Made by a program: the position numbers and the translations under genes
Shown here: positions 2,849 through 57,151 of the stretch, in pieces
Numbering within the stretch: the first letter of the stretch is position 1
Layout of the letters: every line of letters begins with the position of its first letter
The notes under the pieces: generated by a model
Databases searched by the model: none
Seen by the model: the letters and a program-made list of their open reading frames with translations, nothing else
What the model was told of the DNA's origin: nothing
From: Minisyncoccia bacterium
Lineage (GTDB): Bacteria > Patescibacteriota > Minisyncoccia > Phycocordibacterales > CAJBRS01
Assembly (NCBI GenBank): GCA_038215155.1
Contig: JBBQRF010000001.1
Span: forward strand, 54,042 to 118,041
Length of the DNA: 64,000 nucleotides
Reading direction: 5' to 3'

Positions 2849-3556
2849 TTATCTTCGAAAGATTTTGAAAAACCAGCCGAAGAGACTAACTCCACTTGCA
2901 TGAGCGTCGATGAAAGCTTGTAAGGATGCTTGCTCTCTAACCAATACTTGAATTTGAGTGTTCAATTCTGCCTTTATAGCAACGTCAGTAGAAGAAGCAG
3001 CTAAAGCTCTTAATTGATTGATGGTTACTGTGGTGTTGGCTACCGCTGCTCTAAGGAGACTTAAACTAGTTTCATCTGTTCCAAAAAAGAAAACATGAAG
3101 TCGGCCTTGTCCTTCAAGATGGGACATTGCCGCAACAGTGCTTGAGCTTGAATGATCTTGATCTTCAGCAATGACACGAACCTTGGCTCCTATTCCTTTA
3201 TCGTGATCAGCAATATTAAGGAGATGCTGAACGAAACTAGCAACAACGCTTCGGTGCATGTCAGCACTTTCCTCACCCTGTGTTTCTACATCATTATCAT
3301 TCTTATCTTCGTTTCGTACCGTGGTAGTACTAGAATTATGTCCCGACACTTCGTCGCGTTCTCCACGATCTTTATGGCGAGAGTTTAAGTCACCATCAGC
3401 ATCTATTTCTTCAGAGGTATTTGCAGAATCTTCACCATTAGTAATCTTTAGTTGTGAATTCACGGAGGTTCGGAAATTTGTTTCCGCAAAAGCAAAACTG
3501 GAACTTATCAAACTAAGCATAAGGGCTAGGGATAAGAAAAGACTTGTTTTTTTCAT
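2849..3556 (-). CDS. secreted hypothetical protein (signal peptide)
   Basis: 235 aa; N-terminal MKKTSLFLSLALMLSLISSSFAFA signal-peptide-like segment; acidic, Ser/Asp-rich mature part with a predicted helical C-terminus. No recognisable catalytic motif. Confidence 0.5.
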   Translation of the reverse strand: MKKTSLFLSLALMLSLISSSFAFAETNFRTSVNSQLKITNGEDSANTSEEIDADGDLNSRHKDRGERDEVSGHNSSTTTVRNEDKNDNDVETQGEESADMHRSVVASFVQHLLNIADHDKGIGAKVRVIAEDQDHSSSSTVAAMSHLEGQGRLHVFFFGTDETSLSLLRAAVANTTVTINQLRALAASSTDVAIKAELNTQIQVLVREQASLQAFIDAHASGVSLFGWFFKIFRR

Positions 3557-3687
3557 GTTTAATATTTAATTAGTTATTAATAAATAAATCGGATAATACC
3601 CTCTACATCATAGCAGACGTATCGTCACAATCACTCTTACACACCCTCCTCTTTCAAAACGGCTTATTGTATGCTTATATTTAATTT

Positions 3688-5028
3688 ATGAAATCTTATT
3701 TACATTCATTGGGCAAGTGGCCGATCTGGCATAATTACAGTCCTACAGAATGGGTCTTAATAAGTGTCGGCGCACTTGCATTATTTTATATTGCTCTAAA
3801 TTTTTTTACATCTTTTGGAGATCAGACTCCTCCTCCTAAAATTGACTCTTCTGTCAGCTTAAATGATATCGGCCAATTTGAGGAAACTTTAGCGCATGCT
3901 GTAAATTCCAATATTTATGATATGCCTTCCGATTCGGTAAAAATATTAACTAATGGTGGTGAATTCCTGCCCGACTTATTGTCTGAAATCCAAACGGCAA
4001 AAAGTTCAATTTCAATCACCGATTATATTTGGGACGGTGGCAGTTTCGGCAACACATTATTTGAAGCATTAATTAAGAAAGCTCAGGAAGGGGTAGAGGT
4101 CAAAGTGCTGGTTGACGGGACTGGTGGGCATAAGGCAGATACAGACCTAATTAAAAAACTAGAACAGGCCGGAGGCAAGTTCGCTCGATTTCGTCCTGTC
4201 AGGTGGTGGAATTTAAATCGTATTGATCGCCGAACCCATGTACGAGATTTTGTCATTGATAATAAAACTGCCTATGTGGGAGGCATTGCTATTTCCGATT
4301 TATGGCTTGGAGATGCCACCACTTCCAAATCTTGGCATGATTTTATGTTTAAGTCGGGTGGATTATTAGCAGATCAATCCGCCAAGATTTTTAATGTAAT
4401 GTGGAGCAACACTACTGGAGAAATTTTACAAACATCATCCAACACAGAACTTGGTGGGAAACTAGCTCCAAAAGGCTCTAGTTTTGTCCCACTATTCAGT
4501 GTCCCCTCACCTGATATGTCTCACAATATGGAACATTTCATTTGGCTTTCAATGGGTGCAGCTGACCACTCCATCCATATTGAAAATCCATATCTTGTGC
4601 CGAGTAAATCTTTGCTTCAGATGCTGGAAAATAAAGCTCGAGAAGGTGTGGACGTAAAAATTATTGTCCCGGGGAAAAACACCGATGCTAAATACACTAG
4701 GTGGGCTACCCAGTCTTTCTACTCAGAGTTATTAAAGGCGGGGGTAAGAATTTTTGAATACCAACCTTCCCGTATACATGCCAAAATTATGGTGTTTGAT
4801 AATAAATGGAGCATTGTAGGGTCAGCTAACCTAGACAATCGTTCCAGTCAGATTAACCTAGAGTATGTAGTAGGTATTGCAGATCCTAAATTTGCCACTA
4901 ATTTAGAAGATAAGTTTCAAGAGGATTTAACCAAGACCAAAGAGATTACCAAGGAGAATTGGAAAGGTACCTCAACATTCAAACTTCCTTTTGAATTAGT
5001 TTCTAAAATATTTATTAAGCAATACTAA
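3688..5028 (+). CDS. cls: cardiolipin synthase / phospholipase D family protein
   Basis: 446 aa; N-terminal TM helix; two HKD motifs, HVRDFVIDNKTAYVGGIAISD and HAKIMVFDNKWSIVGSANLDNRS. Confidence 0.85.
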   Translation: MKSYLHSLGKWPIWHNYSPTEWVLISVGALALFYIALNFFTSFGDQTPPPKIDSSVSLNDIGQFEETLAHAVNSNIYDMPSDSVKILTNGGEFLPDLLSEIQTAKSSISITDYIWDGGSFGNTLFEALIKKAQEGVEVKVLVDGTGGHKADTDLIKKLEQAGGKFARFRPVRWWNLNRIDRRTHVRDFVIDNKTAYVGGIAISDLWLGDATTSKSWHDFMFKSGGLLADQSAKIFNVMWSNTTGEILQTSSNTELGGKLAPKGSSFVPLFSVPSPDMSHNMEHFIWLSMGAADHSIHIENPYLVPSKSLLQMLENKAREGVDVKIIVPGKNTDAKYTRWATQSFYSELLKAGVRIFEYQPSRIHAKIMVFDNKWSIVGSANLDNRSSQINLEYVVGIADPKFATNLEDKFQEDLTKTKEITKENWKGTSTFKLPFELVSKIFIKQY

Positions 5029-24582: not shown

Positions 24583-25533
24583 TCACTCTTTTACTTTATC
24601 TTGCAATAGAGATAGATGAAATTTGGTGATTTCATCACCTCGCTTCTGGTTAAAAAATCCATACCAGTCGCCGCAAGGATTGAAGTCAATCAAAATCAGC
24701 TGTCCTTCTTTGGTTAGCAGAAATTCAGGACTAGCAAAAGATAGGTTTAGCTTTTTAAGCAAGATTTTGCATGCATCCTTCACACTGGTCGCAAGCTGAA
24801 AATTCTTCCAATTAAGTCTGTCGAACTTCTTTGTGGAGGCATTTCTTTTTTGTATTTTACTTAATACGCTCGCGCAGACTGCCCAACACTTATCTTCGGT
24901 AATGTGAGTCCTGACGTGATAAGAAGTATCAATCAGTTCCTGCCACTGCCACAGCAACCCATCCTCAACTATTTTCGGATTCAGGATACATTCACGTGTA
25001 ATCGTGACTTCCTTCGAGTAGCTTCTCTTATTGGAAATCATGAAAGAATGTCCCAGACTTTTTTTACACAGAATTGTAGGGGACAATCGAGTTGGAGGTA
25101 ACATTCCATTAATGCAAAATGAGGGGACCAGTAATCCACTTTTCTGAGCTTGATCCAGTAGGAATATCTTCGAATCTCCATTGGAAATGCGTTGGGGTGT
25201 TCCTGGAAACCATTGGTTCGGGAACAACCTACCTAATTCCTCTAGAAATTGACCCAGAACATACCTATAAACTTGAGGAAACGAGTATTTGGAATTAAGC
25301 ATTAAAGCGCTATCGGCTCGAATTGGAGCTGATGCGTAAAAAATCGGTCGATTTATAGGTCGCAGCTGATAATAGCAGACTGTCTTTTTATCGACATATC
25401 CAAAGGATAATTCACCTCGGATCGAGTGAATATCTATAATATGGATTGGCAAACCAAAATGTGGAGCTAATCTTTGAAGAGCGACCAAGTGTGGATCCAC
25501 CGAACTAACCCGACTCGATATGACAAAGATCAT
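24583..25533 (-). CDS. ATP-grasp-like protein (graspetide maturase-like, possibly degenerate)
   Basis: 316 aa; N-terminal segment MIFVISSRVSSVDPHLVALQRLAPHFGLPIHIID resembles a pre-ATP-grasp domain; central KIFLLDQAQKSGLLVP; C-terminal LILIDFNPCGDWYGF resembles the E-x-N-P-x-G-x-W Mg-site motif with D in place of E. Confidence 0.45.
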   Translation of the reverse strand: MIFVISSRVSSVDPHLVALQRLAPHFGLPIHIIDIHSIRGELSFGYVDKKTVCYYQLRPINRPIFYASAPIRADSALMLNSKYSFPQVYRYVLGQFLEELGRLFPNQWFPGTPQRISNGDSKIFLLDQAQKSGLLVPSFCINGMLPPTRLSPTILCKKSLGHSFMISNKRSYSKEVTITRECILNPKIVEDGLLWQWQELIDTSYHVRTHITEDKCWAVCASVLSKIQKRNASTKKFDRLNWKNFQLATSVKDACKILLKKLNLSFASPEFLLTKEGQLILIDFNPCGDWYGFFNQKRGDEITKFHLSLLQDKVKE

Positions 25534-25552: not shown

Positions 25553-25590
25553 GTAAAAAAAGAAGCGTAGAGACTAGCCCTACGCTTCTC
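25553..25590 (-). terminator. hairpin terminator/attenuator between small ORF and ATP-grasp gene
   Basis: gaagcgtag-(10 nt)-ctacgcttc stem, followed on the minus strand by a run of 7 T. Confidence 0.55.
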
Positions 25591-25594
25591 TAAT

Positions 25595-25810: not shown

Positions 25811-27409
25811 TTATGCTGCTGGCAGTTCTACCCAAAATGTAGATCCTTTCCCGGTTCCTTCTGATTCTGCCCAAATGCGGCCTTTGTGAGCTTCCACAAT
25901 TTCCTTGGCGATGAAGAGGCCGTAGCCGGTGCTGTTGACGTTGACCTTGGTGGATTCTTTGCCACGACCACCTTCAGTAAAGAGCCGTTTCTTATCTTCT
26001 TCGGTAATGCCCACACCCGTGTCTTTTATACTAAAAAATATTTTCCCATCTTTTTTAGCCAATGAGATTTTCAAGCCACCCTTCAGGGTGTATTTAATAG
26101 AGTTATCAATCAGATTCCCCACGACATGTTGACTGAGTTGATCTCGATCGCCAATGGTGGTGAAATCGACATCTCCCGGAATAATAGTCTCCAATGTCAG
26201 ATTTTTATTTCGAGCCTCCTTTGTGTGTCCCTCAATCTGATCAACGACTACTTTTCGGAAATCAAAAGACTCTCGTTTATATGTAACTGTTCCCTTCTTT
26301 AAGTTAGCGGCGCTTAAGATACTCATTACTGTCTCTACTCCCTCCTGATTATCTCTAAGCCCTTCTTTGGCGACAGATTTAATAGAATCAGGAGTCTCAC
26401 CAAAATCCCCTTCAAGTATTCCAGCAAAAGCAGCCTTACTCTTGGTCAAGTATCCCTTGATTTGATGGCTGACGAAATGAATCAGACCTTCCTGGCGGTC
26501 ATTGGCAAGTTGTAATTCACTGGCCAAATGTTCAATCTTCTCGCGCTGCTCTACCTCGCGCAAAACTCCTCGAATGAGATTGATTCCAAAAATTAAAACT
26601 AAAATAAAAATACTGCTTCGAAATATAATTAATGAAGCAGTATTGGCAAAGATTATTTCGATAAAACTTACGAGAGCTAAGAAAAAAGTAATTATTGCAG
26701 TGCTAACCACTTTTACATTAAATAAATGATGTCGAGCTATGGCATAGGCGGTAAAAAGAACAAATGGAAAAACGAAAAGGGCGCTCAGGGGTATGAACCT
26801 TGTGTTGTTTAATAGCGTAGGAAAAATTAAATTAAAAACAATTATCAAAGTAAACATGATGCTCACGCCCGAAAGCAAAAGAGTAAATTGTTTTCTTTCG
26901 ATTCCGCCTGCTATACCTCTTTTTTTTACCATTAAGAAAATCCCGTTTCCTACTAAAGACACTGCTAATATTACAAACAACAAAATACCGGGTGCTGCTA
27001 TGGGTTGCGACACAGTGCCTAATGGTGCCGCTTTAATACCAGAATAGACAAAAGGAGTCAACGTTAACAAAGCAGTGCCCAAAACAGCGAGCTTTAAATG
27101 TCTTCTATATTTAGAGGTAAATGTAAACGTGGTGTTAGGAAAGACAGACATAAGCTTATAAAAAAAATATGCCTGAAAAATAGCAAAAAATAACACTAAT
27201 TTAATCAGAAACAAGACTAATGAAATATTGGCAACTTGGTAGTTTAAATAACTTACGACTCCCCATAACATAGTGCTAACAGAAAAACCCAAAAAGTATT
27301 TATTTGTGATGCTTTTTGGGTTACTAAAATAAATTACCGAGCCCAAAATTCCCGTACTTGCAACGACAAAACCAACAGACAAAAGATCAAAATTATGGAA
27401 CGAAGACAT
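25811..27409 (-). CDS. sensor histidine kinase with polytopic (about 7 TM) input domain
   Basis: 532 aa; about 300-aa hydrophobic N-terminus with no large periplasmic loop; H-box HFVSHQIKGYL; N-box GNLIDNSIKYT; G1 DTGVGI; G2 GYGLFIAKEIVEAHKG. No response-regulator gene in the window. Confidence 0.85.
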   Translation of the reverse strand: MSSFHNFDLLSVGFVVASTGILGSVIYFSNPKSITNKYFLGFSVSTMLWGVVSYLNYQVANISLVLFLIKLVLFFAIFQAYFFYKLMSVFPNTTFTFTSKYRRHLKLAVLGTALLTLTPFVYSGIKAAPLGTVSQPIAAPGILLFVILAVSLVGNGIFLMVKKRGIAGGIERKQFTLLLSGVSIMFTLIIVFNLIFPTLLNNTRFIPLSALFVFPFVLFTAYAIARHHLFNVKVVSTAIITFFLALVSFIEIIFANTASLIIFRSSIFILVLIFGINLIRGVLREVEQREKIEHLASELQLANDRQEGLIHFVSHQIKGYLTKSKAAFAGILEGDFGETPDSIKSVAKEGLRDNQEGVETVMSILSAANLKKGTVTYKRESFDFRKVVVDQIEGHTKEARNKNLTLETIIPGDVDFTTIGDRDQLSQHVVGNLIDNSIKYTLKGGLKISLAKKDGKIFFSIKDTGVGITEEDKKRLFTEGGRGKESTKVNVNSTGYGLFIAKEIVEAHKGRIWAESEGTGKGSTFWVELPAA

Positions 27410-27424
27410 TTGTGTAAAATTATA

Positions 27425-28453
27425 TCAGTTTTTTAAAACGTCTGAAACCGAAAGACGCGGACTATGTGGTTGCGAAGTGATTGCGCGGCCTACTCGAAAT
27501 ATAAATTGACTATGAAAACCGGGCTTTATAAAAAAATTTAATTTTTCTCGATAATTCGGAGACAAGATGGGTGCTGCCCATACTGCCGTTTTTAAATTGA
27601 ATTGTTCTGCAATTAAGGCGATTCTTTCATAGCATTCCCCCACCTTTATCCAATCAACTTTTGTATCCGTCATGGAACTTAACAAAATATAAGCTGGAGT
27701 ACCGTCAGTGAGTATTTTTAAAGTCGAAGACTTATTAAGGCGATCCATATTAAAAAATTTTACTAAATTAGGAACAATAAAAGATGGTAATAGAGGTATA
27801 CCCATCCCAAATGCAGGGATACCAATTTTGGATTTTGTTATATTATTTTTCACATATGGACTGAGTTCTCGTCGAAATTTTGAATTGTCCATTAATTCTA
27901 TATTTGAACTAACTATTATATCCGCAATTCCCTCTTTATCTGTATGGCCGTCAACAACGTTTATATTCATCTTAGGATTATCCAACTGAGAAAGTGCTTC
28001 TCTAAATTCTATAGAAAGTGGCTCCCTATGATAATTACTACGATTTACAGATCTTTTTACAATTGAAAAAATCAAGTGAGAAGAATTTTTTCGTATTGCG
28101 GTTTCGTCGAAACGAATGATGGCGACTAGATTTTCATGTATTGCATCAGGAAGATAAGAGACGTCGTATGATAGGCCGTAGTAATCTGCGGCTACACGTA
28201 TGTTTTCGATAGCACACCCCAAATTCATCAATAATAATCTATTATCAGGGTCACCCACCTTTAATTTTCGGAGAGAATTTTGGTAAATAAAAATACTTTG
28301 GTCGCGTATTTCAAAAATCCATGGCTGACTGTTATGACTCGAGGGCGCTAGAACTGCAAAATTAATTAGGAAATGTAATTTTTCTTTCCACGTGCGGCAC
28401 TCTTCGTATTTAGCAAAGTCAATGTCCCAAGGTTTATAATTTTCCTTTTCCAT
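27425..28453 (-). CDS. two-domain nitroreductase-family flavoprotein (SagB/Acg-like?)
   Basis: About 342 aa from ATG 28453. APSSHNSQPW is the nitroreductase-family FMN-binding motif. Its length implies a tandem or two-lobed nitroreductase fold. Confidence 0.6.
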   Translation of the reverse strand: MEKENYKPWDIDFAKYEECRTWKEKLHFLINFAVLAPSSHNSQPWIFEIRDQSIFIYQNSLRKLKVGDPDNRLLLMNLGCAIENIRVAADYYGLSYDVSYLPDAIHENLVAIIRFDETAIRKNSSHLIFSIVKRSVNRSNYHREPLSIEFREALSQLDNPKMNINVVDGHTDKEGIADIIVSSNIELMDNSKFRRELSPYVKNNITKSKIGIPAFGMGIPLLPSFIVPNLVKFFNMDRLNKSSTLKILTDGTPAYILLSSMTDTKVDWIKVGECYERIALIAEQFNLKTAVWAAPILSPNYREKLNFFIKPGFHSQFIFRVGRAITSQPHSPRLSVSDVLKN

Positions 28454-28457
28454 ATAA

Positions 28458-29870
28458 TTATTTTTTAACCCACCGTTGTTTGCCTTGTGAATTAAAATAT
28501 TTTGAATGTTGGTAAGGCCACCCAATAATTAACGGAATTACTTTTGAGGGTTCGGTTGAATAAAGATAAGCATATTCTGAATTGTGAGTTCGCAAACCCA
28601 GTATTATAGATTCGGTAATTTGTTTTTTTAATTTGGGATTCCAGCGTATTCCTTTTTTAAGTTCAACGTGTATTTCCAGTATTCTATCCATTTTTTTGTT
28701 CTCACGTTTCATCATGGTAGCCTTTCCTGTTAGATAGCGATTTAAAGGATAGCTGTCGATAATAGACCTAATTTCCTCCGGATAAATGTTTGCACCTCTA
28801 AAAACCATACCTAAGTCTGACCGTGCATAGACATAAACAAAGGGCAACTTTAATATTTGATCAAATATTTTATATTTTAAAATTTCCTTCTCGATACTAA
28901 TTCCACTTTTTTTTAACTTTCTCATCATTTCGTCATAAGTAATCACACCCCCAAGATCTGCAAACTCGTAACGAATAAGCGGAATAGAAGAGCCATAATT
29001 AGTGGCTACTACTTTTTTTCCAACCTCCTCAAAAAAAATACTTTGCGGGTAATATTGACCTATTGTCGGAATATTGGTGGCATGTGGAAAGATGGATAAA
29101 AAAACTTTCGGATTTTCATTGGCAATTTTTCGGATTAAGTTAGACAAGGATGTTTCATGCGCAATCGTTCCTTGTTCAACGGTACCGTAAATATTGATAA
29201 TATCGTTTAAAGGGTTTTTTAACCCAGATTTTTTGACAATATAATTGCGGAATTCCTCGGAATACCCTTCCGCAGCAGTTAAAATACGTAAATTATGTTT
29301 AGACCAATGAATGCCTGCCTCCTTTCCACTATCTAAAATATCTTTTATGAAAGGTGGGTAGCCCATCAAGATAACTTGATCATAAAAAGGAGCGAACTTT
29401 TTAAACGACTGAAGATATAACTCTTTGTTTGTGCCGACCGGTACAAGTGTAAAATCATAACCTTTCTGGGCAATTTTGTTGAAATTCTTGTAGGTAAAGA
29501 TGCCGCCAATCCAAATACCAAGTCCAAAGCCCACTATGCCTAGGGTGCGCTTCTTATCTAATTCAAATTGATTGATTAAAAAAATCTCCGATGCGTGCTC
29601 ATATTGACGATCGTGGTCCTCATCGCGCGGAAAGAAAAAAGGCTCACCAGTAGATCCTGAAGTGGCTGAGATTGTCGTTGCCACGGAGACATCTCGATTT
29701 GGAAAAAGGTCAAGATAATCGTGGCTACGGAGATAAGCGTCCTTTGAAAGAAGCGGTAGTTTATGAAAATCCTTGATAGTGGAAATCCGTCCCTTGAATC
29801 CTTGTTTTCTAATAAATTGGCGATAGGCGGGAACGGTTTCGTAAACATACTTAAATAAATTTATAGCCAT
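28458..29870 (-). CDS. PaaK/F390-synthetase-like adenylate-forming enzyme
   Basis: About 470 aa from ATG 29870, preceded by AGGGGGAAAAT. SATSGSTGEPFFFPR resembles the PaaK-family AMP-binding motif. An in-frame open extension upstream (possible starts at 29987/30023) leaves the start uncertain. Confidence 0.55.
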   Translation of the reverse strand: MAINLFKYVYETVPAYRQFIRKQGFKGRISTIKDFHKLPLLSKDAYLRSHDYLDLFPNRDVSVATTISATSGSTGEPFFFPRDEDHDRQYEHASEIFLINQFELDKKRTLGIVGFGLGIWIGGIFTYKNFNKIAQKGYDFTLVPVGTNKELYLQSFKKFAPFYDQVILMGYPPFIKDILDSGKEAGIHWSKHNLRILTAAEGYSEEFRNYIVKKSGLKNPLNDIINIYGTVEQGTIAHETSLSNLIRKIANENPKVFLSIFPHATNIPTIGQYYPQSIFFEEVGKKVVATNYGSSIPLIRYEFADLGGVITYDEMMRKLKKSGISIEKEILKYKIFDQILKLPFVYVYARSDLGMVFRGANIYPEEIRSIIDSYPLNRYLTGKATMMKRENKKMDRILEIHVELKKGIRWNPKLKKQITESIILGLRTHNSEYAYLYSTEPSKVIPLIIGWPYQHSKYFNSQGKQRWVKK

Positions 29871-29979
29871 ATTTTCCCCCTGCCTCTTCCAATATGCTGC
29901 GGGCCGTCTTTTGTAATATGCCAAAGATTTCTCAATCTTGGGAGGAACGAAGTGGGCAAATTTATTTTTCTTTTTGGGG

Positions 29980-31068
29980 CTAGGCATAGGAATTAAAAAT
30001 CTTTTCGGCCATGATATTGGCAATAATATTAGGCGCGGTATTTTCTTTTTTGCTTTTTCTTAAAATATTTTGAAGGGTGTTAGGGATTTCCAACACTTGT
30101 TTTAGTACTTTATTTTCACGATATGTCTTATTCTTAAATTCATCGAAAACAGCAATGAGGCCGCCGGCATTAATGACGTAGTCGGGCGCGTATAGAATAT
30201 CCAATTTGTGGAGCAGTACTCCGATATTTTCATTGGCTAATTGGTTGTTGGCACTACCGGCTATGATTTTAGCTCTAATTTCGGTAATAGTCATTGAGCT
30301 AAGGGAGCCGCTCAGGGCACACGGAGAGAAGACGTCGACATTTTGTTTATGAATTTCTTCCGGCTTTACTATAATCACTTTTGGAAATTTGCGGCGGCAA
30401 AGAGCAATGGCTTTTGGATCGATGTCAGCTCCATAAATTTTCCCCGCTTCAATTCCAGATTTCTTCATTTCTTTCTCAATCAAGGTAAGAAGGGCGTTTC
30501 CAACCTTACCTAACCCTTGGATAGCGAAACTCCTTCCTTCAAAAGAGGTATTGCCATAAATCTCTTTTAAGCAAACTTTTATTGATTCGAAAATGCCGAC
30601 TGCTGTTAAAAAGGTGGCATTGTCATTGAAACCGACTATTTGATTTTTAGCAGCCTTCATTGAATTGAGGTCGCGTCTAAAGACGCCGGCATCCGTCCCG
30701 GTGACGAAGTGAGTAGAGAGAAAGGCTACTTTTTCGGCGTAACTTCTGAAGAGCTCCTTTCGCTTTTTTTCATCTCTATTCCCCACCTTATCAATGATCA
30801 CTCCCTTGGCGCCGCCACAATCAAGTCCTGCCATGGCGGATTTATATGACATAAGGCGAGATAAGCGAAGAGCATCCTGAAGTGCCTCGTTCAGTGAGCC
30901 GTATTGCCACAAACGTGTAGCGCCGAAAGATGGAATGGAAGGATTAGAACGATGAATAACAATAAATCCTTCTAGTCCGGAAGCTTCATCCTGAAGGTAG
31001 GCCACGAAACGATGATCATCAAACTCTGAAAAATCCTTTATGCTTTTTTCAGCTAAAAAGTCGGGCAT
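29980..31068 (-). CDS. Glu/Leu/Phe/Val amino-acid dehydrogenase family (Leu/Phe-DH-like)
   Basis: 362 aa; GATRLWQYGSLNEALQDALRLSRLMSYKSAMAGLDCGGAKGVI matches the LeuDH/PheDH substrate/catalytic-Lys region (GGTRMW...GGGK); Rossmann GLGKVG. Confidence 0.75.
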   Translation of the reverse strand: MPDFLAEKSIKDFSEFDDHRFVAYLQDEASGLEGFIVIHRSNPSIPSFGATRLWQYGSLNEALQDALRLSRLMSYKSAMAGLDCGGAKGVIIDKVGNRDEKKRKELFRSYAEKVAFLSTHFVTGTDAGVFRRDLNSMKAAKNQIVGFNDNATFLTAVGIFESIKVCLKEIYGNTSFEGRSFAIQGLGKVGNALLTLIEKEMKKSGIEAGKIYGADIDPKAIALCRRKFPKVIIVKPEEIHKQNVDVFSPCALSGSLSSMTITEIRAKIIAGSANNQLANENIGVLLHKLDILYAPDYVINAGGLIAVFDEFKNKTYRENKVLKQVLEIPNTLQNILRKSKKENTAPNIIANIMAEKIFNSYA

Positions 31069-31073
31069 AGTGT

Positions 31074-32153
31074 TTAAGCGTGAGTTGAATGAGTAATGTC
31101 TGTGGGTGAAATATAACTTCGAATATCTAAATCAGTACTTTCTCCAGAGACGACTTTCTTCAGCATGGCAGTTACGACGACGCCGCCTAAAATTGCGGCG
31201 GAGCCAAGCTGAGGCCAAGAAACAAGTTCCTTGGAAATTACACGGGGTACAGCCATCATCATGTTGGGGTCCACTTTGTCGGGTCCTCCGACAATATCTC
31301 CGATAATCATTTTGCCCGCCATTTCTTTAGTGAAAGGGCCAGCAGCCAATTTCTTTTTAAAATATTCGACGTCTTTGCCCCATATCTTGGTGTTGCCTAA
31401 ATCGTATCTTTCAACATGGAGAACTACGCCGTCGCCATTATCGGTCACCATTAATACGGCTTTTTTATATTTTATGGCAAGGAGGCGGGCATGAATTTTA
31501 AATGGCATATCATCAATTTCCTCAACAATGCAGTCAATCTTCCCCGCTTTCAATAATTCTTCTAAGTTATCTTCGTTTACGCCATCTTTCAATAACGTTA
31601 CTTCCGCAAAAGGATTGTCTTCGTAGATGCGGCGAGCGGCAATGATGGTCTTGTTGATACCTATCTGATGAGCACCTGCTAAGATTCTGTTTAAATTAGT
31701 GGTGTCGAGCTCGTCGAAATCAGCTAAGACGATCTTATTTGAGATTCCAGCTTGAGTCATGACGAAAGCAATGTTAGAGCCAACACTCATTCCAAGGACA
31801 GCTACTTTATAATCCCGTAATTTTTTCTGAAGATCGGGTGATATTAGTCCGTCGTTTCTGTTAGTCTTCAGGCGATAGTAGTTGTCGGCTTTAACTGTTT
31901 TGATTAAATGATGATTCCATGGGAAATAAACGTGAATAAAATCGTCCTTTTTATCATCGGTGTATTTTTTGAAGTCATCGGTCTTGTAGACTTCTTCTTT
32001 GTCTTGGCCGATGAATGAATGATTATCAATAAAGAACAATTCTTTTAGCTGACGATCAAAAGCGTCAACAACAGTGATATAGGAGTGCTGATTTAGAAAT
32101 TCTTCTACCTTCTCCGAGCTTTCAAAATAAAGCGGTTTTTCAGAAGTGTCCAT
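31074..32153 (-). CDS. E1-like (ThiF/MoeB/MccB superfamily) adenylyltransferase with N-terminal extension
   Basis: 359 aa; KVAVLGMSVGSNIAFVMTQAGI...IVLADFDELDTTNLNR matches the E1 nucleotide-binding fold (GxGxxG ... D.D.V..SNLNRQ). It has about 110 aa N-terminal and about 100 aa C-terminal extensions and no CxxC zinc motif. Confidence 0.7.
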   Translation of the reverse strand: MDTSEKPLYFESSEKVEEFLNQHSYITVVDAFDRQLKELFFIDNHSFIGQDKEEVYKTDDFKKYTDDKKDDFIHVYFPWNHHLIKTVKADNYYRLKTNRNDGLISPDLQKKLRDYKVAVLGMSVGSNIAFVMTQAGISNKIVLADFDELDTTNLNRILAGAHQIGINKTIIAARRIYEDNPFAEVTLLKDGVNEDNLEELLKAGKIDCIVEEIDDMPFKIHARLLAIKYKKAVLMVTDNGDGVVLHVERYDLGNTKIWGKDVEYFKKKLAAGPFTKEMAGKMIIGDIVGGPDKVDPNMMMAVPRVISKELVSWPQLGSAAILGGVVVTAMLKKVVSGESTDLDIRSYISPTDITHSTHA

Positions 32154-32273
32154 ATAGATATTATATAACAGATATAAAATAATGGCTCGGACGGGGATAA
32201 TCCGCTATAGATGATACAATGCGTCTTAAATTTATCAATGATAATTATCTCACAAGTATATACTTATAAAGAT

Positions 32274-32789
32274 CTAGTCTTTCCTTTTAAAAATAAACCT
32301 AATAATATGCCAAAATTTAACTTCCCCTCTCATGGTCTTACCATATCCCTCGGTGACGGATTTTTCGATGAGAGATAGGTTAAGAGAATCAATACAAGGA
32401 AGGATTTCCGGAAGATCGAAAAATGACATATTTTTATTGCCCATCCACTCGTCATGGGGACCGAAAAGGCTGAAATACATTACTCCATTAAGAGCTAATC
32501 CCTTTGACATATTAGCCAATATTTTCTTGACCTTTTCTTTATCGGAAATGAAAGAGAGGGTGTTATTGCAGATAATAACATTATATTTTTCAGGTTCGAT
32601 GTGAAAGTTCGTTATATCTGTTCTAATTGCTGATCTATATTCACTCCGAACATCTACGGAAATGACTTTGTAACCAAGTTTTTTAAAATACTCGGAATCA
32701 TCACCTGCTCCACACCCTAGATCAAGCATGTTACCGCTGTCTTTGATCAAGTCGAGCTCGATCATTTTGTTTATATAATGTTTTACCAT
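32274..32789 (-). CDS. class I SAM-dependent methyltransferase
   Basis: 171 aa; motif I LDLGCGAGDDS, followed by acidic post-I VISVDV. Confidence 0.7.
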   Translation of the reverse strand: MVKHYINKMIELDLIKDSGNMLDLGCGAGDDSEYFKKLGYKVISVDVRSEYRSAIRTDITNFHIEPEKYNVIICNNTLSFISDKEKVKKILANMSKGLALNGVMYFSLFGPHDEWMGNKNMSFFDLPEILPCIDSLNLSLIEKSVTEGYGKTMRGEVKFWHIIRFIFKRKD

Positions 32790-32860: not shown

Positions 32861-33376
32861 CTACGTGTTGGCGCAGTTGTGGCAACTCTTGCAGGACATA
32901 CATGAACCACAATCGCCACTTGGTTCTCCGGAATTACCCCAATTTTCGGAGATGACACCGAAAGTTGAGACTGCGACTGATGCCGCATTCAGGACTTTCC
33001 CTTCAAGTGATTCTCCACGACGACGCGGGCGATGATGGATGAAACGTCCAAATCTGGTTAAGCAAAACTCCTCGTAATCCAGAGTGAACAGGATGAAGTT
33101 ATGCCACATCTCATCAATCTTCGGTGGAGGAGCTATGGGCGTCGTGTTGGTAGCGCAGAGATACAAATATAGTTTTGTATCCTCGAAGCAGTGTACTGCA
33201 TCCTCTTCTTTCCATCCGTACTTATCCACCATGCGATGAATCAACGGAAGGAAAATGAATGCCAGAACATACTTAAGATCGACTCGAGACGCTGACTGAT
33301 CGTTAATCTCTCTGTCTTCTTTATCGGCCCGTGTACGCTTCGCACCCGTTTTAGGGGGTACAGCTATTGTTTTCAT
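32861..33376 (-). CDS. hypothetical protein with periodic-Cys C-terminal tail (candidate modified-peptide precursor)
   Basis: 171 aa; C-terminal GEPSGDCGSCMSCKSCHNCANT has Cys every third residue (C-xx-C-xx-C-xx-C-xx-C). Monocistronic, with its own terminator; divergent from the M16 peptidase gene. Confidence 0.5.
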   Translation of the reverse strand: MKTIAVPPKTGAKRTRADKEDREINDQSASRVDLKYVLAFIFLPLIHRMVDKYGWKEEDAVHCFEDTKLYLYLCATNTTPIAPPPKIDEMWHNFILFTLDYEEFCLTRFGRFIHHRPRRRGESLEGKVLNAASVAVSTFGVISENWGNSGEPSGDCGSCMSCKSCHNCANT

Positions 33377-33650: not shown

Positions 33651-34859
33651 ATGAAAGAATTTCATCTGGAAGACATTCCTGTACGGTTTCACCAAAAAAA
33701 AGATGCTCCAATTTATATCAGAGTTCAGTTTTTGGCTGGAAGTCGCTTTGACGAAAAGGAAGGTACTGCCCACTTTCTAGAACATATGATGTGCGCAGGC
33801 AGCCAAAAATTTACCACCAAGAATTTATTGGCTGAATACATAGAAGCTGTGGGTGGAAATTTCGCCTTAAGCACTAGTAGTGATTATATTAATATTGATA
33901 TCCAGGTTCCGACAAAAGATGAGATGAAGATTGCGGTGGTGATATTAGATGAAATGGTGAATCATTCGCTTTTTGAGCCCGCAACCTTAGAGACTGAGAG
34001 GGGCTCAATCTTGTCCGAACAAGTTATAGCCAAAAATGCACAACGTTCTTATATTCATACAGTATTCAAGAAATTAGCCTATCAAAAAACTGATATTGCA
34101 AAAAATGTCCTCGGAACCAAGGAGTCTGTGATGACTATAACCACGGAGGATCTAAAAAAACACAGGACCAAATATATCCATAGGCAGACTTTAAAAATCT
34201 TAGTTGTGGGAGATATTAGTGAGGAAGAACTCATAAAGGAAATGCGAGGTATAAATTGGGCAACTGGTCCATGTTTTATCGTGGTTAATTTACCCATAGT
34301 AGCAAATCAATTATTTGTCCTTGAAATTTATAATTCAAAAGAGGCTACCCTTCGAGCCGGTTTTAGATTAAGTACTTTTGATATTAAGAATCGAATCTGT
34401 GGGGATATTCTCGCGGAGTTTTTAGGCAGTAGTCGAAGTGGCATTTTAAGTCAAGAACTGCGATATAAAAGAGGTCTGATCTATTCCGCTTCCGCACACC
34501 ATTTTCAATCGATTGATGGGGGTACTTTTTCTGTTACTACCTCCACCGAGGTTAAAAATTTTGCCGAAGTTTTGTCCGTCATTAAACAGATCATAGAAGA
34601 TCTGATCGCTCAGGGAATTCCCGCCTCCACATTGAAATATATAAAATCTAAAATATTAAAATCTATGAAAATAGATTTACAGACCTCTAAAGCTTGGGTG
34701 AATTATATTGAGAATTATGATTTAGAAGAAACAAGCAGATACTTAGAGGATATAAGTGAAGGGGATATAAAAAATTATATCAATCAAAATTTTGCTATAG
34801 ATAAATTTTTTGTGGCCGTGTGCGGTCCAGAAGATCTTAGGATGATTTTAGAAAAGTAG
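33651..34859 (+). CDS. M16-family zinc peptidase (insulinase/pitrilysin-like, single chain)
   Basis: 402 aa; inverted zinc motif HFLEHM (HxxEH) near the N-terminus; downstream Glu-rich LETERGSILSE. Confidence 0.75.
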   Translation: MKEFHLEDIPVRFHQKKDAPIYIRVQFLAGSRFDEKEGTAHFLEHMMCAGSQKFTTKNLLAEYIEAVGGNFALSTSSDYINIDIQVPTKDEMKIAVVILDEMVNHSLFEPATLETERGSILSEQVIAKNAQRSYIHTVFKKLAYQKTDIAKNVLGTKESVMTITTEDLKKHRTKYIHRQTLKILVVGDISEEELIKEMRGINWATGPCFIVVNLPIVANQLFVLEIYNSKEATLRAGFRLSTFDIKNRICGDILAEFLGSSRSGILSQELRYKRGLIYSASAHHFQSIDGGTFSVTTSTEVKNFAEVLSVIKQIIEDLIAQGIPASTLKYIKSKILKSMKIDLQTSKAWVNYIENYDLEETSRYLEDISEGDIKNYINQNFAIDKFFVAVCGPEDLRMILEK

Positions 34860-45521: not shown

Positions 45522-46832
45522 TTAAGGGTTTACCGTTTCCACCTTGATACTGGCCGCTTTACTAGGAAACGACCAGCGCCAGAAAGGCTTAAAGACTACC
45601 TCGGCTTTTTTAATGGAGGCGTAGTTGGCGAGGACTGTGGAAAGATCGCTTCGAGATATACCTTTCAGGTCATTTTTTAACTTATCCACATCCACCACTG
45701 ATACAACAGCTAATTGTCCTTCTAATTTGAAACTGAGCTGGTTGGGAGATTTAGGATCATATCCTTTTGGATCTGTGAAATTAAAGGTTAAATTTTCAAT
45801 TCCTGAAAAACTACTGCTAGCTAAGCTAATAGAAAAAGCATTGGCGAGATATTTAGATATTTGATTTTTGTCCAAGACGACAGCATAGGCGGTGGCACTT
45901 TCTTTTACGGTGACTTTTTTGTCCGTACTAGTGCCATTGCCGAGAGGGGTAAAAATAATTGTTAGAGCATTTGGATAGAGGATAAAGTTATCGGGTTTTT
46001 GGCTGTTGGCTTGCGCGAGTATTTCCGCGCGCAAGTTTGATTCAATTTGTGTTTTAGCAACTGCTAAGTCAGCGGCGGAAACAGTCTTGCGCGTACCGAC
46101 GAAGCCACCGGAGAGTGGAGTTTTGGATCGAGCGTAAAAACCCTGGGCCTTTGGAGTGCCTTGAAAACCAGGAATAGTAAAATCTTTTAAACCAACATTA
46201 TATTCTTCTCCGGGTGCATCGGCATAGAGAGTGGCTTCGGCAGTACCTGGAGTAATTTTTCCATTGACCGTAGCTTGTCCTGGGACTGTAACGTCTTTAT
46301 CTATTCTAAATATCAATCCTTCTGGTGTTTTAAAACGCGTGGTGGCTATCAGAGTTTGAGGTTGGCTATTGTAGTTATTGTAAATAATAATATCTCCTGA
46401 CGCCTTGTCGCTTCCTGTTGTATCACCACTGGAAGGCGCTTCTGCTTTCCCCTCTTTCTCCAAAGTAATAACGGCATAAGGCATTGCTCCGTTCGCTGCA
46501 TTTGGATCGCCAATAATAGTTTGATTGACGTTAACGTTCTGACTGTTGGGTGTAACTTTTACATCAGCCCCGGCAAATAGATAAGAAATACCAAAAAATA
46601 AAAATATAATGGCTATTAGCACTAAAGACCATAGACCCGCTCGGCGGGTGCGGTCATTTCTGGGAGCGCTATCGTCGACTGTCCTATTGACCACCGGAGG
46701 GTCGATCGATCTTTCTGGAGCAGGTGCGGGCGCCGGAGAAACCTCCGCTTTTACTCTTCGCGGCGCAGATAAAGGAATATCTCGAATGGATCTTCTTTGA
46801 GGTGGAGTAATGTCTTGAAATTGATTAGCCAT
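45522..46832 (-). CDS. membrane-anchored hypothetical protein with Pro/Ala-rich cytoplasmic N-terminus
   Basis: 436 aa; single TM (LWSLVLIAIIFLFFGISYLF) after an Arg/Pro-rich N-terminus; large beta-rich extracytoplasmic part. No motif. Confidence 0.5.
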   Translation of the reverse strand: MANQFQDITPPQRRSIRDIPLSAPRRVKAEVSPAPAPAPERSIDPPVVNRTVDDSAPRNDRTRRAGLWSLVLIAIIFLFFGISYLFAGADVKVTPNSQNVNVNQTIIGDPNAANGAMPYAVITLEKEGKAEAPSSGDTTGSDKASGDIIIYNNYNSQPQTLIATTRFKTPEGLIFRIDKDVTVPGQATVNGKITPGTAEATLYADAPGEEYNVGLKDFTIPGFQGTPKAQGFYARSKTPLSGGFVGTRKTVSAADLAVAKTQIESNLRAEILAQANSQKPDNFILYPNALTIIFTPLGNGTSTDKKVTVKESATAYAVVLDKNQISKYLANAFSISLASSSFSGIENLTFNFTDPKGYDPKSPNQLSFKLEGQLAVVSVVDVDKLKNDLKGISRSDLSTVLANYASIKKAEVVFKPFWRWSFPSKAASIKVETVNP

Positions 46833-46845
46833 AACTTATTTAATA

Positions 46846-48009
46846 TTAACCTAACTTGTTCGGCTTAAAAAGGGTTTGCTGCACAAAAATGCCAATACTC
46901 GCTAAGGACGAATCGAGTTGTTTTTTATTAAAATCGATGAATTCTACGAAATCCAGGGCGGAAACGACCCGTACATTACTTGAATTCGCCCCAAAAGAAA
47001 ATTGACTGAGATCTTCTCGTTTAAAGATGTTGGAGAAAAGGGACTCCATTTGGTTTTGGCTAATAAGATACGATGAAGTCGGCAAAGAAACCCCTCCCGA
47101 AAGTACCGTAAGGGCAGAGGTTAAGTTTTGCTGCCATTCTTTTTCAAATTCAGAAATAATTTTTACGATTTTCTCATTTATACCTTTTTCTACATTTCCT
47201 TGTTTGTAAAGTTTTATTAAAGAGGCGGCCACTGCTGGGCTAACTCTCATATCACCTTGCATTAGATCTAATAACTTTGAAAAACCGATGGGTACCGAAA
47301 TGGTCTCGTGCAAAACATTTTTCTTTATTAGTGAAATTTCCGTCACTAACCCCGTAACGTTTAACAATAGAAAGTCATTTGCTTCTTTTAAAACGTCGCG
47401 AATGGCTACAAAAGAAACGAGTGCCAGGGTGTTGATGTGGACTCGCTGATATGGCAGGTGGGTTGAAATATTTTTTTGAAGAGCATTTATAAATCTTTTC
47501 TCGCCAAAACTTTGGACGACAGAAATATTTATGGTGTTTGCTTTCTTATTTAACGGCGCAGCGGTAACATATCCATTCAAGGAAATATCAATTATTTTAT
47601 TTTCCAATAATACGAGTTCCTCTGGATAATTTTTAAGGTTCTCTTTTTCACCGTTTGACAGCAGACTTTCAATTGTCTCTTCTTTTACGGTAAGGGGCTG
47701 TTCCGATGTCGTCTTAAAGGTCTTAGTCCAAGAATGATACCAGGGTGAAGCCACCACAACGAAAATATCGCTTATTTTGTGAGGATCAAGTTGATTCTCC
47801 TGGAGGTGTTTAGCCATTTTCTGGGTAATCTTGTCCAGGCGACGCAGGATTGCGCCCTCAAGCTCCACCTTTCCGAGGTTGGAATCGGCCGTCAGCTCTT
47901 CTATTTCTATATTTAATATTTTAGGAACTTCTAAATAAGGATAAGTTACTAAGGCACTTTTCACTAAACTGTCGCCAATATAAAAGAGAAGAGCGTGCCT
48001 ATCATTCAT
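46846..48009 (-). CDS. actin-like (ASKHA-fold) ATPase-domain protein, FtsA/PilM-like (tentative)
   Basis: 387 aa; N-terminal LLFYIGDSLVKSALV (phosphate-1-like) and LLLNVTGLVTEISLI (phosphate-2/DxG-like). Remote similarity only. Confidence 0.35.
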   Translation of the reverse strand: MNDRHALLFYIGDSLVKSALVTYPYLEVPKILNIEIEELTADSNLGKVELEGAILRRLDKITQKMAKHLQENQLDPHKISDIFVVVASPWYHSWTKTFKTTSEQPLTVKEETIESLLSNGEKENLKNYPEELVLLENKIIDISLNGYVTAAPLNKKANTINISVVQSFGEKRFINALQKNISTHLPYQRVHINTLALVSFVAIRDVLKEANDFLLLNVTGLVTEISLIKKNVLHETISVPIGFSKLLDLMQGDMRVSPAVAASLIKLYKQGNVEKGINEKIVKIISEFEKEWQQNLTSALTVLSGGVSLPTSSYLISQNQMESLFSNIFKREDLSQFSFGANSSNVRVVSALDFVEFIDFNKKQLDSSLASIGIFVQQTLFKPNKLG

Positions 48010-54976: not shown

Positions 54977-55922
54977 TGGCTATATGCTCTTTTAAAGTGG
55001 TGGCGTAATGCATATTGCCGCTTTTATCAGAGATAAAATAATAGAAAGGTGTATCCGTGGGATAGAGGGCAGCAGTAATGGTATCTAACCCTGGATTGGA
55101 AATGGGAGTAGGGGGGAGACCCCGGTGTCTGTAAGTATTATATGGAGAATTAATTTTCAAATCAGCCGCCGTTAATTCTGCTGAACTTTTACCATTAATG
55201 TATTTGAACGTGGCGTCCACTTGAAGTGGAGTGCCGTCCGTAATTCTCTTCCACAAAATACCAGCCACAATCTTCCTATCGGCACTAGTCTTCGCCTCCC
55301 CCTCCAGAATGGAGGCCATAGTAATAATCTCATCCACCGAATGGGTAGATGAGGCCACTGCACCACTCAAGGTATTGATCTTCTGGTCAAAAGTATTCCG
55401 CATCATGGAAATTACCTCCGCAGGAGGCACTGTGGGAATAAAAAAATAAGTCTCGGGAAATAAATATCCTTCCTTGTCTGTAGCAAGATTTAAAAACTCT
55501 TCCTTATCAAATAAATTAAATCTATTTTTGTAAATATTAGCCATCTCTTTCACACTCACCCCTTCCGGAAGAGTTACCTTTATAGTAACGATGCCATAAT
55601 CTCCCTGGTTAATTCGACGAGCAACTTCAAACAAGCTATTGGAGTGCTGAAAAAGATAGTAACCCGCCACAACCTTATGTTCGCCCCCCATGAAAATCAC
55701 AAGATTAGTAAGCCAAAATGGAGAGCTAATGATTCCATTATTATAGAGTTCCCGCGCTACAGACTGAACACTTTGACCGCTCTCCACTCTAATTGTTGAG
55801 TCGGGCTTAAAATTAGAAGGCGTCTGAAAAAATATCTTAAAAAAAAGGAAAAGTAAAACACAAATAAATAATACTCCGTACAATCCCAGACGTTCTAAGA
55901 TTTTCAATATTTTTTCCCTCAT
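54957..55922 (-). CDS. mltG: endolytic murein transglycosylase MltG (YceG family)
   Basis: 321 aa; N-terminal TM; C-terminal YceG signature (…PYNTYRHRGLPPTPISNPG…FYYFISD…). Confidence 0.85.
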   Translation of the reverse strand: MREKILKILERLGLYGVLFICVLLFLFFKIFFQTPSNFKPDSTIRVESGQSVQSVARELYNNGIISSPFWLTNLVIFMGGEHKVVAGYYLFQHSNSLFEVARRINQGDYGIVTIKVTLPEGVSVKEMANIYKNRFNLFDKEEFLNLATDKEGYLFPETYFFIPTVPPAEVISMMRNTFDQKINTLSGAVASSTHSVDEIITMASILEGEAKTSADRKIVAGILWKRITDGTPLQVDATFKYINGKSSAELTAADLKINSPYNTYRHRGLPPTPISNPGLDTITAALYPTDTPFYYFISDKSGNMHYATTLKEHIANVKKYL

Positions 55923-57151
55923 ATTGGAAGATTAGCCGGAGCGTCGGCTTTCTTAGCAGGCAATCGGTCAAAGCTAGGCGTGCCAGCCACTTCACCTGGG
56001 AAGTGAAAGATGGTGGCCAATTCTTCTGTTGTCATGATGAAGGGTTCGTGATGATCCATGAAAGGCGGCTCAAAAGCTCCGCGTTCTTTATAAGCGTCTA
56101 GCATGTGTTGCTCCATTCGATTTCGCCGCCTTCTCATAGTATTTTTAAATGGCGAAATCCAGCCAAAAAGTTTTACCATGTCTTTACCAAAATCATCATG
56201 GTCGGTAAACCATCCCAAGCTAATGCTGTTGAGATGGTCAGAGGAGTATTGTCTGAAACTGCCAATTAAGCCGCTAATGCCAAGATGATTATTGAAAATA
56301 TCCTCATGGGCAATATAGATACCGCGAATACAGCATTCAAATGGAAACTTAGCCAAATTTCTTTCCAAAACCATCATTACTTCTTGTTGGGCTTTGGTGG
56401 GGTTCGGGCGTCCTTTAGCTTCTTTGTCGGTGCTTTCAGTAGTTTCTTTTCTGATTTTCTGCACTTCGGCCTTCACTTCTTCTTTCCATTCTCGACTAGG
56501 ACCCTGGAGAACCCGGCCCTCTTTCCAACCTTCTTGTTTGTGAGCTTGAATAATTATTTGAATCCAGCCATATTCATTTTGGTGAAGAGATCCTAAATAT
56601 TCCAGGACAGAAGTAAATGGATCAATTTTAAATTCTTCTTTTGGATTTTCGTCCAAGCCGTAATCAATATAGGTTTTAATAGGATAGACATCCTCTTTCT
56701 TTTTCTTAAAATAGGTTCCCCACATCACCATCTCTTTACCGTGATCAATTATATGAGTGTAATCCTCCACCTCATGAACTTCTACGTTTGGATACTGGGC
56801 GTAAATTTGGGTCTCAATAATATTCTTCCAAGCAGAACGAGTGTAAATATAAAAATGAACCTTTCCTTCTAAAGAAACTAACTCTAAAGAAAACGAGGGG
56901 CGAACTTTGCCGTCAATATAAGTTTCCAAATAAGAGGCGGCTCCGGTTTGAAAAAGGGCAGTGAAGAAAATCTCCATGGCGGCGGGAGATTTAGTTATTT
57001 CTTTTGGTAATTTTAATTCTAAAAGAGTGTAGTTTTGTTTGGCCACAAATTTACTCCGAGTGTAACGGAGCCATAGACGCAAAAAAGCGTATCCCAGAAA
57101 AAGTGGAATACAGAAGACTAAAAGAACATAGACAGCATAAAAAACATTCAT
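55919..57151 (-). CDS. conserved hypothetical membrane-anchored protein
   Basis: 410 aa; N-terminal TM; charged Lys/Glu-rich central region; C-terminal ...TTEELATIFHFPG. Family not recognised. Confidence 0.5.
   Translation of the reverse strand: MNVFYAVYVLLVFCIPLFLGYAFLRLWLRYTRSKFVAKQNYTLLELKLPKEITKSPAAMEIFFTALFQTGAASYLETYIDGKVRPSFSLELVSLEGKVHFYIYTRSAWKNIIETQIYAQYPNVEVHEVEDYTHIIDHGKEMVMWGTYFKKKKEDVYPIKTYIDYGLDENPKEEFKIDPFTSVLEYLGSLHQNEYGWIQIIIQAHKQEGWKEGRVLQGPSREWKEEVKAEVQKIRKETTESTDKEAKGRPNPTKAQQEVMMVLERNLAKFPFECCIRGIYIAHEDIFNNHLGISGLIGSFRQYSSDHLNSISLGWFTDHDDFGKDMVKLFGWISPFKNTMRRRRNRMEQHMLDAYKERGAFEPPFMDHHEPFIMTTEELATIFHFPGEVAGTPSFDRLPAKKADAPANLPI

Follow-up and report, generated by a model that had tools for sequence, protein, structure and literature searches.

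The stretch analysed here, termed the window in the following, comprises 64,000 nucleotides from a Minisyncoccia bacterium (GenBank assembly GCA_038215155.1, contig JBBQRF010000001.1, positions 54,042 to 118,041). On its minus strand, at 31074-32153, it harbors an intact open reading frame (ORF) for a ThiF-like protein of 359 aa. Judged by sequence, this protein most resembles the cyclase half of bacterial oxazolone synthetases such as TrzS (Rv1355c) of Mycobacterium tuberculosis. It is probably a stand-alone, ATP-dependent cyclase of the oxazolone-synthetase lineage (OxzB/TyzB/TrzS), which would produce an oxazolone-type ring from a small substrate in concert with a flavin-dependent oxidase (FDO). 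This reading is based on what was observed, namely the fold, the placement in the family, an ATP site with intact residues, a conserved operon, and gene fusions. The initial annotation of the region had described an E1-like adenylyltransferase, but the strand was not stated, and the context, namely a separately encoded FDO partner and a conserved operon of five genes, was missed.

Fold and family placement of the ThiF-like protein

The protein matches the Pfam family ThiF (1e-19, residues 103-234), and an AlphaFold2 (AF2) model calculated with an alignment of 35 sequences reached a pLDDT of 91.1 and a pTM of 0.89. The product of 31074-32153 is a genuine ATP-using enzyme of the ThiF/E1 fold, which bears out the core assignment made earlier. 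According to the alignment and the AF2 model, 88 residues come before the first core helix, dividing the ORF into an N-terminal domain (residues 1-88; 31890..32153, minus strand) and the adenylation core (residues 89-359; 31074..31889, minus strand). Core residues invariant among 35 homologues are R99, G121-M-S-V-G-S126, D145/D147, N153-L-N-R156, K168, E212/D214, and T237-DNGDG. The motif T97-N98-R99-N100 is also invariant and sits on the first core helix in the model. The P-loop, G121-M-S-V-G-S126, is short, with one residue less than GxGxxG. ATP/Mg-binding residues are intact, including the aspartate equivalent to D217 of TrzS(Msmeg), and the TrzS variant D217A loses the ATP step (PMC12856293). 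Binding of ATP and adenylation of a carboxylate are regarded as established by homology. Its only cysteine is C208, and therefore a CxxC zinc site is absent, as had been noted before.

Searching with the ThiF-like protein revealed 486 homologues. The best 120 of these are 56-69% identical and all of about the same length as the query (about 350-365 aa). Where the sources give names, they are Parcubacteria, Paceibacterota, or bacteria of the candidate phyla radiation (CPR). Placement among E1-like enzymes rests on the scores of hidden Markov models. By far the best NCBIfam match was NF005901, "Rv1355c family protein" (193.6 bits, E 5e-57), in which residues 13-340 are aligned to positions 24-326 of 722, the N-terminal half of the profile. 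The score is below the cut-off of 476 bits, a value set on a fusion protein of 722 aa and out of reach for one half alone. The next scores, each given with its cut-off, were obtained for ThiF (68 bits versus 159; 9e-19), TcdA (NF011696, 46.9 versus 304), MoeB (44.9 versus 449; 6e-12), and MoeZ (34.8 versus 647). The ThiF-nitroreductase models PRK14851 and PRK14852 yielded only 63 and 41 bits, respectively.

When 1.84 billion representatives were searched exhaustively, 518 clusters were detected at E<1e-30, of which the best 150 are considered in the following. About 39 of these proteins are larger than 600 aa and occur side by side with stand-alone proteins of 340-430 aa; at least 27 of the long proteins carry a C-terminal domain homologous to the FDO of the window. 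For four long representatives, the Rv1355c model (cut-off 476) gave 342-452 bits, the value of 452 bits belonging to the ThiF-FDO fusion P0142. The ThiF-like protein is 33% identical to P0142 over residues 5-338. Both share the N-terminal domain, the short P-loop G-x-S-V-G-S, and the motifs DNGD, ERYDL, and SWPQLG.

The N-terminal domain has the topology beta-alpha-beta-alpha-alpha-alpha-beta-beta. In the initial annotation, about 110 N-terminal residues were described as an extension comparable to a peptide clamp or to the recognition element (RRE) of enzymes acting on peptides that are made by ribosomes and modified after translation (RiPPs). The extension as such is real, but no RRE-like match, that is, to a PqqD-like winged-helix, was obtained for this domain. 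Instead, the Rv1355c/TrzS family has a homologous region at its N-terminus, and 131 of the 150 representatives align from query residue 35 or earlier. An RRE or peptide clamp is not supported by these two results. The domain is common to the ThiF-FDO fusion P0142 and the Rv1355c profile, and it is therefore a family-specific trait that is also present in an enzyme acting on small molecules.

A conserved five-gene operon

The ThiF-like gene is the first of five tightly arranged minus-strand genes, which are 1-15 nt apart or overlap. It is followed by a gene for an amino-acid dehydrogenase of the ELFV (Glu/Leu/Phe/Val) family (29980..31068, minus strand, 362 aa), recognized by the Pfam domain ELFV_dehydrog and the corresponding N domain. 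Among PDB entries, the dehydrogenase is closest to leucine dehydrogenase (LeuDH, 4.7e-63) and tryptophan dehydrogenase (TrpDH, 1e-55), followed by phenylalanine dehydrogenase (4.5e-34), and a ScyB-like NCBIfam model is matched at 4e-76, under its cut-off. The third gene (28458..29987, minus strand) specifies a PaaK-like adenylate-forming ligase of about 509 aa when started from the ATG at 29987; the mechanically defined ORF extends to 30023. The Pfam scan gave no match for this protein, which was identified by the NCBIfam model PaaK (8e-13) and the PDB entry 2y4o of PaaK (1e-6), which has an SSGTTGKP-type loop. It contains a TSGSTGEP P-loop and a C-terminal GKQRW motif.

The FDO is encoded by the fourth gene (27425..28456, minus strand, about 343 aa from the ATG at 28456, within an ORF spanning 27425-28525). 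It belongs to the nitroreductase superfamily and is Acg-like, with 197 bits versus a cut-off of 199 for NF047509, the Acg family of FMN oxidoreductases, and a PDB match to Acg (2ymv). The FDO also matches positions 368-647 of the Rv1355c profile at 1e-19, the other half of the very profile matched by the ThiF-like protein, and the C-terminal domain of P0142 is a homologue. Judged from these matches, the FDO gene corresponds to the second half of TrzS, the C-terminal one, in split form. The last gene (25811..27409, minus strand) codes for a sensor histidine kinase of 532 aa (Pfam HATPase_c, 1.5e-24) with an N-terminal seven-transmembrane (7TM) region (HisKA_7TM, 6e-6). No response regulator gene was detected among the annotated ORFs of the window, whereas two related loci, L046 and L049, have one adjacent.

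Consensus scans detected possible signals at both ends of the operon. A promoter-like site, TTGATA-16-TATCAT (32211..32238, minus strand), is located upstream of the ThiF-like gene, about 60 nt from its start codon, and agrees with the consensus in 10 of 12 positions; it is weak evidence, because such sites were not enriched over shuffled sequence. The kinase gene is followed by a terminator-like hairpin with a 14-bp stem and a T-run (25559..25591, minus strand), predicted by consensus scan only.

To follow the operon in other genomes, GTDB genomes were scanned, and 36 loci, almost all labelled Patescibacteria, were compared by tblastn with the proteins of the window. Genes were counted wherever 5.5 kb or more followed downstream of the ThiF gene, which applied to 25 loci. 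Next to the ThiF gene, the gene for the PaaK-like ligase is present in all 25, the dehydrogenase gene in 24, the kinase gene in 23, and the FDO gene in 22. The order of the five genes is nearly always kept across the patescibacterial loci. The kinase gene is also adjacent in distant contexts (L042, L045, L046, L048, and L049), and even in relatives with a ThiF identity of only 31-38%.

Several of these genes were found fused to each other. P0217 is a protein of 1242 aa consisting of ELFV dehydrogenase, PaaK-like ligase, and ThiF parts, with the FDO gene directly upstream and the 7TM kinase gene downstream. In P0197, PaaK-like ligase and ThiF are joined, the ELFV gene being located upstream and genes for the kinase and a response regulator downstream. 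The ThiF-FDO fusion P0142 is preceded by the ELFV and PaaK-like genes and followed by the kinase gene. Finally, P0184 combines ThiF with an aromatic ammonia-lyase. Judged by gene organization, these fusions confirm that the parts of the operon are functionally linked.

The position of the dehydrogenase gene is not always occupied by the same enzyme. In L048 (153-2927), an aromatic ammonia-lyase/aminomutase domain fused to the ThiF-like protein takes the place of the dehydrogenase and is followed by PaaK-like ligase, FDO, and 7TM kinase genes. In L004, L005, and L010 (6811-7968), the dehydrogenase gene is missing, and a class I/II aminotransferase gene is located directly upstream. Thus, three unrelated enzymes share one position in the operon. 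Their common trait is that they remove or move the alpha-amino group of an amino acid.

In two loci with PaaK-ThiF or ELFV-PaaK-ThiF fusions, an inserted gene for an alpha/beta-hydrolase separates the ThiF-containing gene from that of the 7TM kinase (L042, 11732-12607; L049, 3767-4648). This hydrolase could process a labile ring product.

Proposed pathway and alternative explanations

In TrzS (Rv1355c, also "MoeY", of M. tuberculosis and M. smegmatis), a ThiF cyclase and an FDO are combined, and N-acyl-tryptophan is converted to N-acyl tryptazolone by ATP-dependent cyclisation and subsequent O2-dependent desaturation (PMC12856293). Oxazolones do not withstand acid or methanol (PMC12856293). 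The system described here is similar in its best family model, which covers N-terminal domain and core, in the conserved ATP-site aspartate, and in the FDO partner from the nitroreductase superfamily. The locus in M. tuberculosis also adjoins signalling genes for the turnover of cyclic di-GMP (PMC12856293), whereas a histidine kinase gene is found here. In contrast to TrzS, which is a single fusion of about 720 aa accompanied by the acyl-CoA N-acyltransferase TrzA, ThiF and FDO are specified by separate genes with two genes between them, TrzA is absent, and PaaK-like ligase, amino-acid dehydrogenase, and 7TM kinase are present. As far as can be compared from its description, the pair TyzB/TyzC (Rv2338c/Rv2337c) shares the split layout, with stand-alone cyclase and stand-alone FDO encoded in one operon, and forms tyrazolones (PMC10404671). 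The Tyz pathway, however, depends on acyl-CoA and on TyzA, an acyltransferase of FeeM/AHL-synthase-like fold (AHL, acyl-homoserine lactone), and TyzB belongs to another subcluster of the sequence similarity network than TrzS (PMC12856293). OxzB of Pseudoalteromonas rubra, the founding oxazolone synthetase (bioRxiv 10.1101/2020.06.11.147165), likewise unites ThiF and nitroreductase and acts on a small molecule in an ATP-dependent manner, but it is a fusion protein of Proteobacteria with the gene for the acyltransferase OxzA adjacent. According to a review from 2025, OxzB is the one ThiF-like enzyme for which activity on a small molecule is known (PMC12596934).

A peptide- or metabolite-adenylating role had been put forward initially, and adenylation of a metabolite is the best reading of the data. 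Given the closest relatives of characterised function and the conservation of the FDO as a partner, we infer that the substrate is a small molecule resembling an N-acyl amino acid and the product an oxazolone. The ThiF-like enzyme would adenylate the free carboxylate of this molecule, and the amide oxygen would attack the acyl-adenylate, closing a 5(4H)-oxazolone ring. The FDO, encoded two genes further on, would then desaturate the C-alpha/C-beta bond, resulting in an exocyclic double bond. The substrate is probably assembled by enzymes of the operon itself. The LeuDH/TrpDH-like dehydrogenase may deaminate an amino acid to the acid, and the PaaK-like ligase may activate this acid, which would be of the 2-oxo or the cinnamate type, and use it, either directly or by way of CoA, to acylate a second amino acid. 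A deaminated amino acid is proposed as acyl donor because none of these operons contains an acyltransferase gene, while all contain genes for a PaaK-like ligase and a deaminating enzyme. This part, derived by analogy, is more speculative. Flexirubin synthesis, with the tyrosine ammonia-lyase FlxA and the PaaK-like ligase FlxY, could serve as a model for the acyl supply; matches to the NCBIfam models of FlxA and FlxY were weak or partial. Through the co-transcribed 7TM histidine kinase, the pathway would be connected with signalling; the kinase may sense the product or regulate the operon, as suggested by its adjacency even at 31-38% ThiF identity.

A number of points weigh against this proposal. 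The N-acyltransferase that defines the known oxazolone systems is absent, since family scans revealed no enzyme of the OxzA/TyzA/TrzA type in the operon, among the ORFs of the 64-kb window, or among the called genes of the related loci. To our knowledge, no enzyme of the PaaK family makes N-acyl amino acids. The product of the lyase, a cinnamate-type acid or a beta-amino acid, is chemically unlike the 2-oxo acid obtained with the dehydrogenase. Desaturation by FDOs requires O2 in the characterised systems, and many Patescibacteria live in anoxic habitats. The ThiF-like protein is only about 33% identical to the ThiF-FDO fusions, and its likeness to TrzS, TyzB, and OxzB is based on profiles and published descriptions. 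Moreover, the highest score of the FDO was obtained with the model for Acg (FDO-B), while TrzS is found in FDO subcluster A4 (PMC10404671).

With the same set of enzymes, different chemistry may take place. Another nucleophile could close or capture the adenylate, such as an amine leading to a diketopiperazine, a pyrazinone, or a lactam, or an external amine or thiol, and the FDO would oxidise or reduce a product other than an oxazolone. We consider this rather unlikely, but it would fit the replacement of the acyltransferase that defines oxazolone clusters by a PaaK-like ligase and a deaminating enzyme. ThiF-like enzymes form many linkages from the same adenylate (PMC12596934), and AlbA of the nitroreductase superfamily desaturates cyclic dipeptides (cited in bioRxiv 10.1101/2020.06.11.147165). 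However, the closest characterised relatives, TrzS, TyzB, and OxzB, all yield oxazolones, and the match to the Rv1355c model extends over the full length of the protein including the N-terminal domain. A RiPP-type enzyme would adenylate a ribosomal peptide or protein, either at its C-terminus or at a side chain. The protein with a Cys-rich tail encoded at 32861-33376 is one candidate substrate, and the FDO would act like the dehydrogenase of thiazole/oxazole-modified microcins. A homologue of this protein in the operon region of L006, the Cys-rich peptide of L045 encoded with YcaO, nitroreductase, and M16 genes and divergently to PaaK-like and ThiF genes, the M16 peptidase gene in the window, and the presence of MccB, PaaA, and AclA among the top fold matches could be taken to indicate such a function. 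It is nevertheless improbable. The N-terminal domain of MccB, PaaA, GrcB, and IndF is a leader-peptide-binding RRE (PMC12596934), but the domain found here is not, and a conserved precursor gene is lacking; the spacing of the operon genes, 1-15 nt or overlapping, leaves no room for one. AclA of Tenacibaculum discolor (PDB 9egb), the top structural match, is only 17% identical, has 250-265 aa, and lacks the N-terminal domain. In addition, Cys-rich ORFs accompany the operon only sporadically (about three of 45 loci), the methyltransferase, Cys-rich protein, and M16 peptidase are not conserved neighbours, and the family scans of the window revealed no YcaO.

Enzymes of other ThiF-like groups are far less compatible with the data. 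In favour of a classical E1 activating a sulfur carrier or another ubiquitin-like protein (ThiF, MoeB, MoeZ, or UBA-type) are the Pfam match to ThiF and the features shared with MoeB, ThiF, and MoeZ, namely an adenylation core of the Rossmann type with its ATP-binding motifs, and the partner could be encoded outside of the 64 kb inspected. Such an E1 is highly improbable in view of a single cysteine, no CxxC, no catalytic-Cys loop, and no rhodanese domain, scores far under the cut-offs of the ThiF, MoeB, and MoeZ models, and metabolic enzymes as conserved partners. A plausible small ORF for a ubiquitin-like protein ending with GG was detected neither in the window, consistent with the initial annotation, nor at 49 related loci, where a gene of the ThiS/MoaD/CysO type had been named as evidence for a sulfur-carrier function. 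The initial preference for a role other than sulfur-carrier activation is thereby supported. Equally remote is a TcdA-like tRNA t6A dehydratase. TcdA is the best match to the PDB by sequence (5e-9), and it also makes an oxazolone or hydantoin ring. The TcdA model is, however, missed by a wide margin (46.9 bits versus 304), TcdA does not possess the N-terminal domain, and both the operon and the gene fusions suggest a role in amino-acid metabolism.

The discovery of oxazolone synthetases dates back only to 2020-2021. Though the enzyme family is already known, the split layout with PaaK-like ligase and dehydrogenase replacing the acyltransferase, the linked 7TM kinase, and the phylum-wide conservation in genome-reduced Patescibacteria are undescribed. 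In the literature, no paper was found on the gene combination of ThiF, nitroreductase, PaaK/F390 synthetase, and LeuDH, or on an oxazolone pathway in CPR bacteria. The locus points to a large branch of the oxazolone-synthetase family in these bacteria, which differs in its substrate supply and is strictly linked to a sensor kinase. If the proposed oxazolone pathway applied, a rare specialised-metabolite pathway would be added to the CPR bacteria, and a new acyltransferase-free route to N-acyl amino acids would be at hand. A signalling role of oxazolones has been speculated by the authors describing TrzS (PMC12856293); it would become directly testable by binding of the product to the kinase. 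Taken one step further, the five genes would constitute a route from amino acids to a new class of azlactones without acyl-CoA N-acyltransferase, the product would be sensed by the 7TM kinase as the first receptor candidate for bacterial oxazolones, and this small-molecule signalling would be conserved across the Patescibacteria (CPR). In this complete form, the idea is doubtful and offered as a speculation.

Other genes of the window

Upstream of the operon, a gene for a small S-adenosylmethionine-dependent methyltransferase (32274-32789, minus strand) and one for a two-domain M16 peptidase (33651-34859, plus strand; YfmF/YfmH-like, weak) flank the gene for the Cys-rich protein. The latter, two genes upstream of the ThiF-like gene (32861-33376, minus strand), specifies 171 aa without any family match and with the Cys-rich tail GDCGSCMSCKSCHNCANT. 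In L006 (13556-14182), a homologue with 32% identity and a similar tail is encoded between the PaaK-like and FDO genes. L045 contains a gene for a Cys-rich peptide of 60 aa (3524-3706, minus strand) ending with CKSNKCQCSQCKSCSCRISSGEVKGK, beside YcaO, nitroreductase, and M16 peptidase genes, with PaaK-like and ThiF genes running divergently; the YcaO gene is on the opposite strand, and this is the only locus in which one was seen. M16 homologues near the operon were found in L045 and also in L021, but not generally.

Just past the terminator-like hairpin, a gene for a protein of 316 aa is located (24583-25533, minus strand), which weakly matches ATP-grasp maturases of ribosomal peptides (TIGR04187, 6.6e-11, 42 bits versus 350). 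The gap of 278 nt upstream of it contains no obvious precursor ORF. As conserved parts of the system, methyltransferase, Cys-rich protein, M16 peptidase, and ATP-grasp-like protein were considered and rejected, since tblastn showed that hardly any of the related loci contain them.

An Rfam scan of the window gave no hits at gathering thresholds, and no genes for thiamine or molybdopterin synthesis were found among its annotated ORFs. Several ORFs are without any match. Three ORFs of 436, 387, and 410 aa (45522-46832, 46846-48009, and 55919-57151, minus strand) have no Pfam match at 1e-5 and are located amid housekeeping genes. The other ORFs of the window with family matches are of this housekeeping type and specify ribosomal proteins, aminoacyl-tRNA synthetases, RpoA, DnaK/DnaJ/GrpE, MurG/FtsW/MraY, and MnmA.

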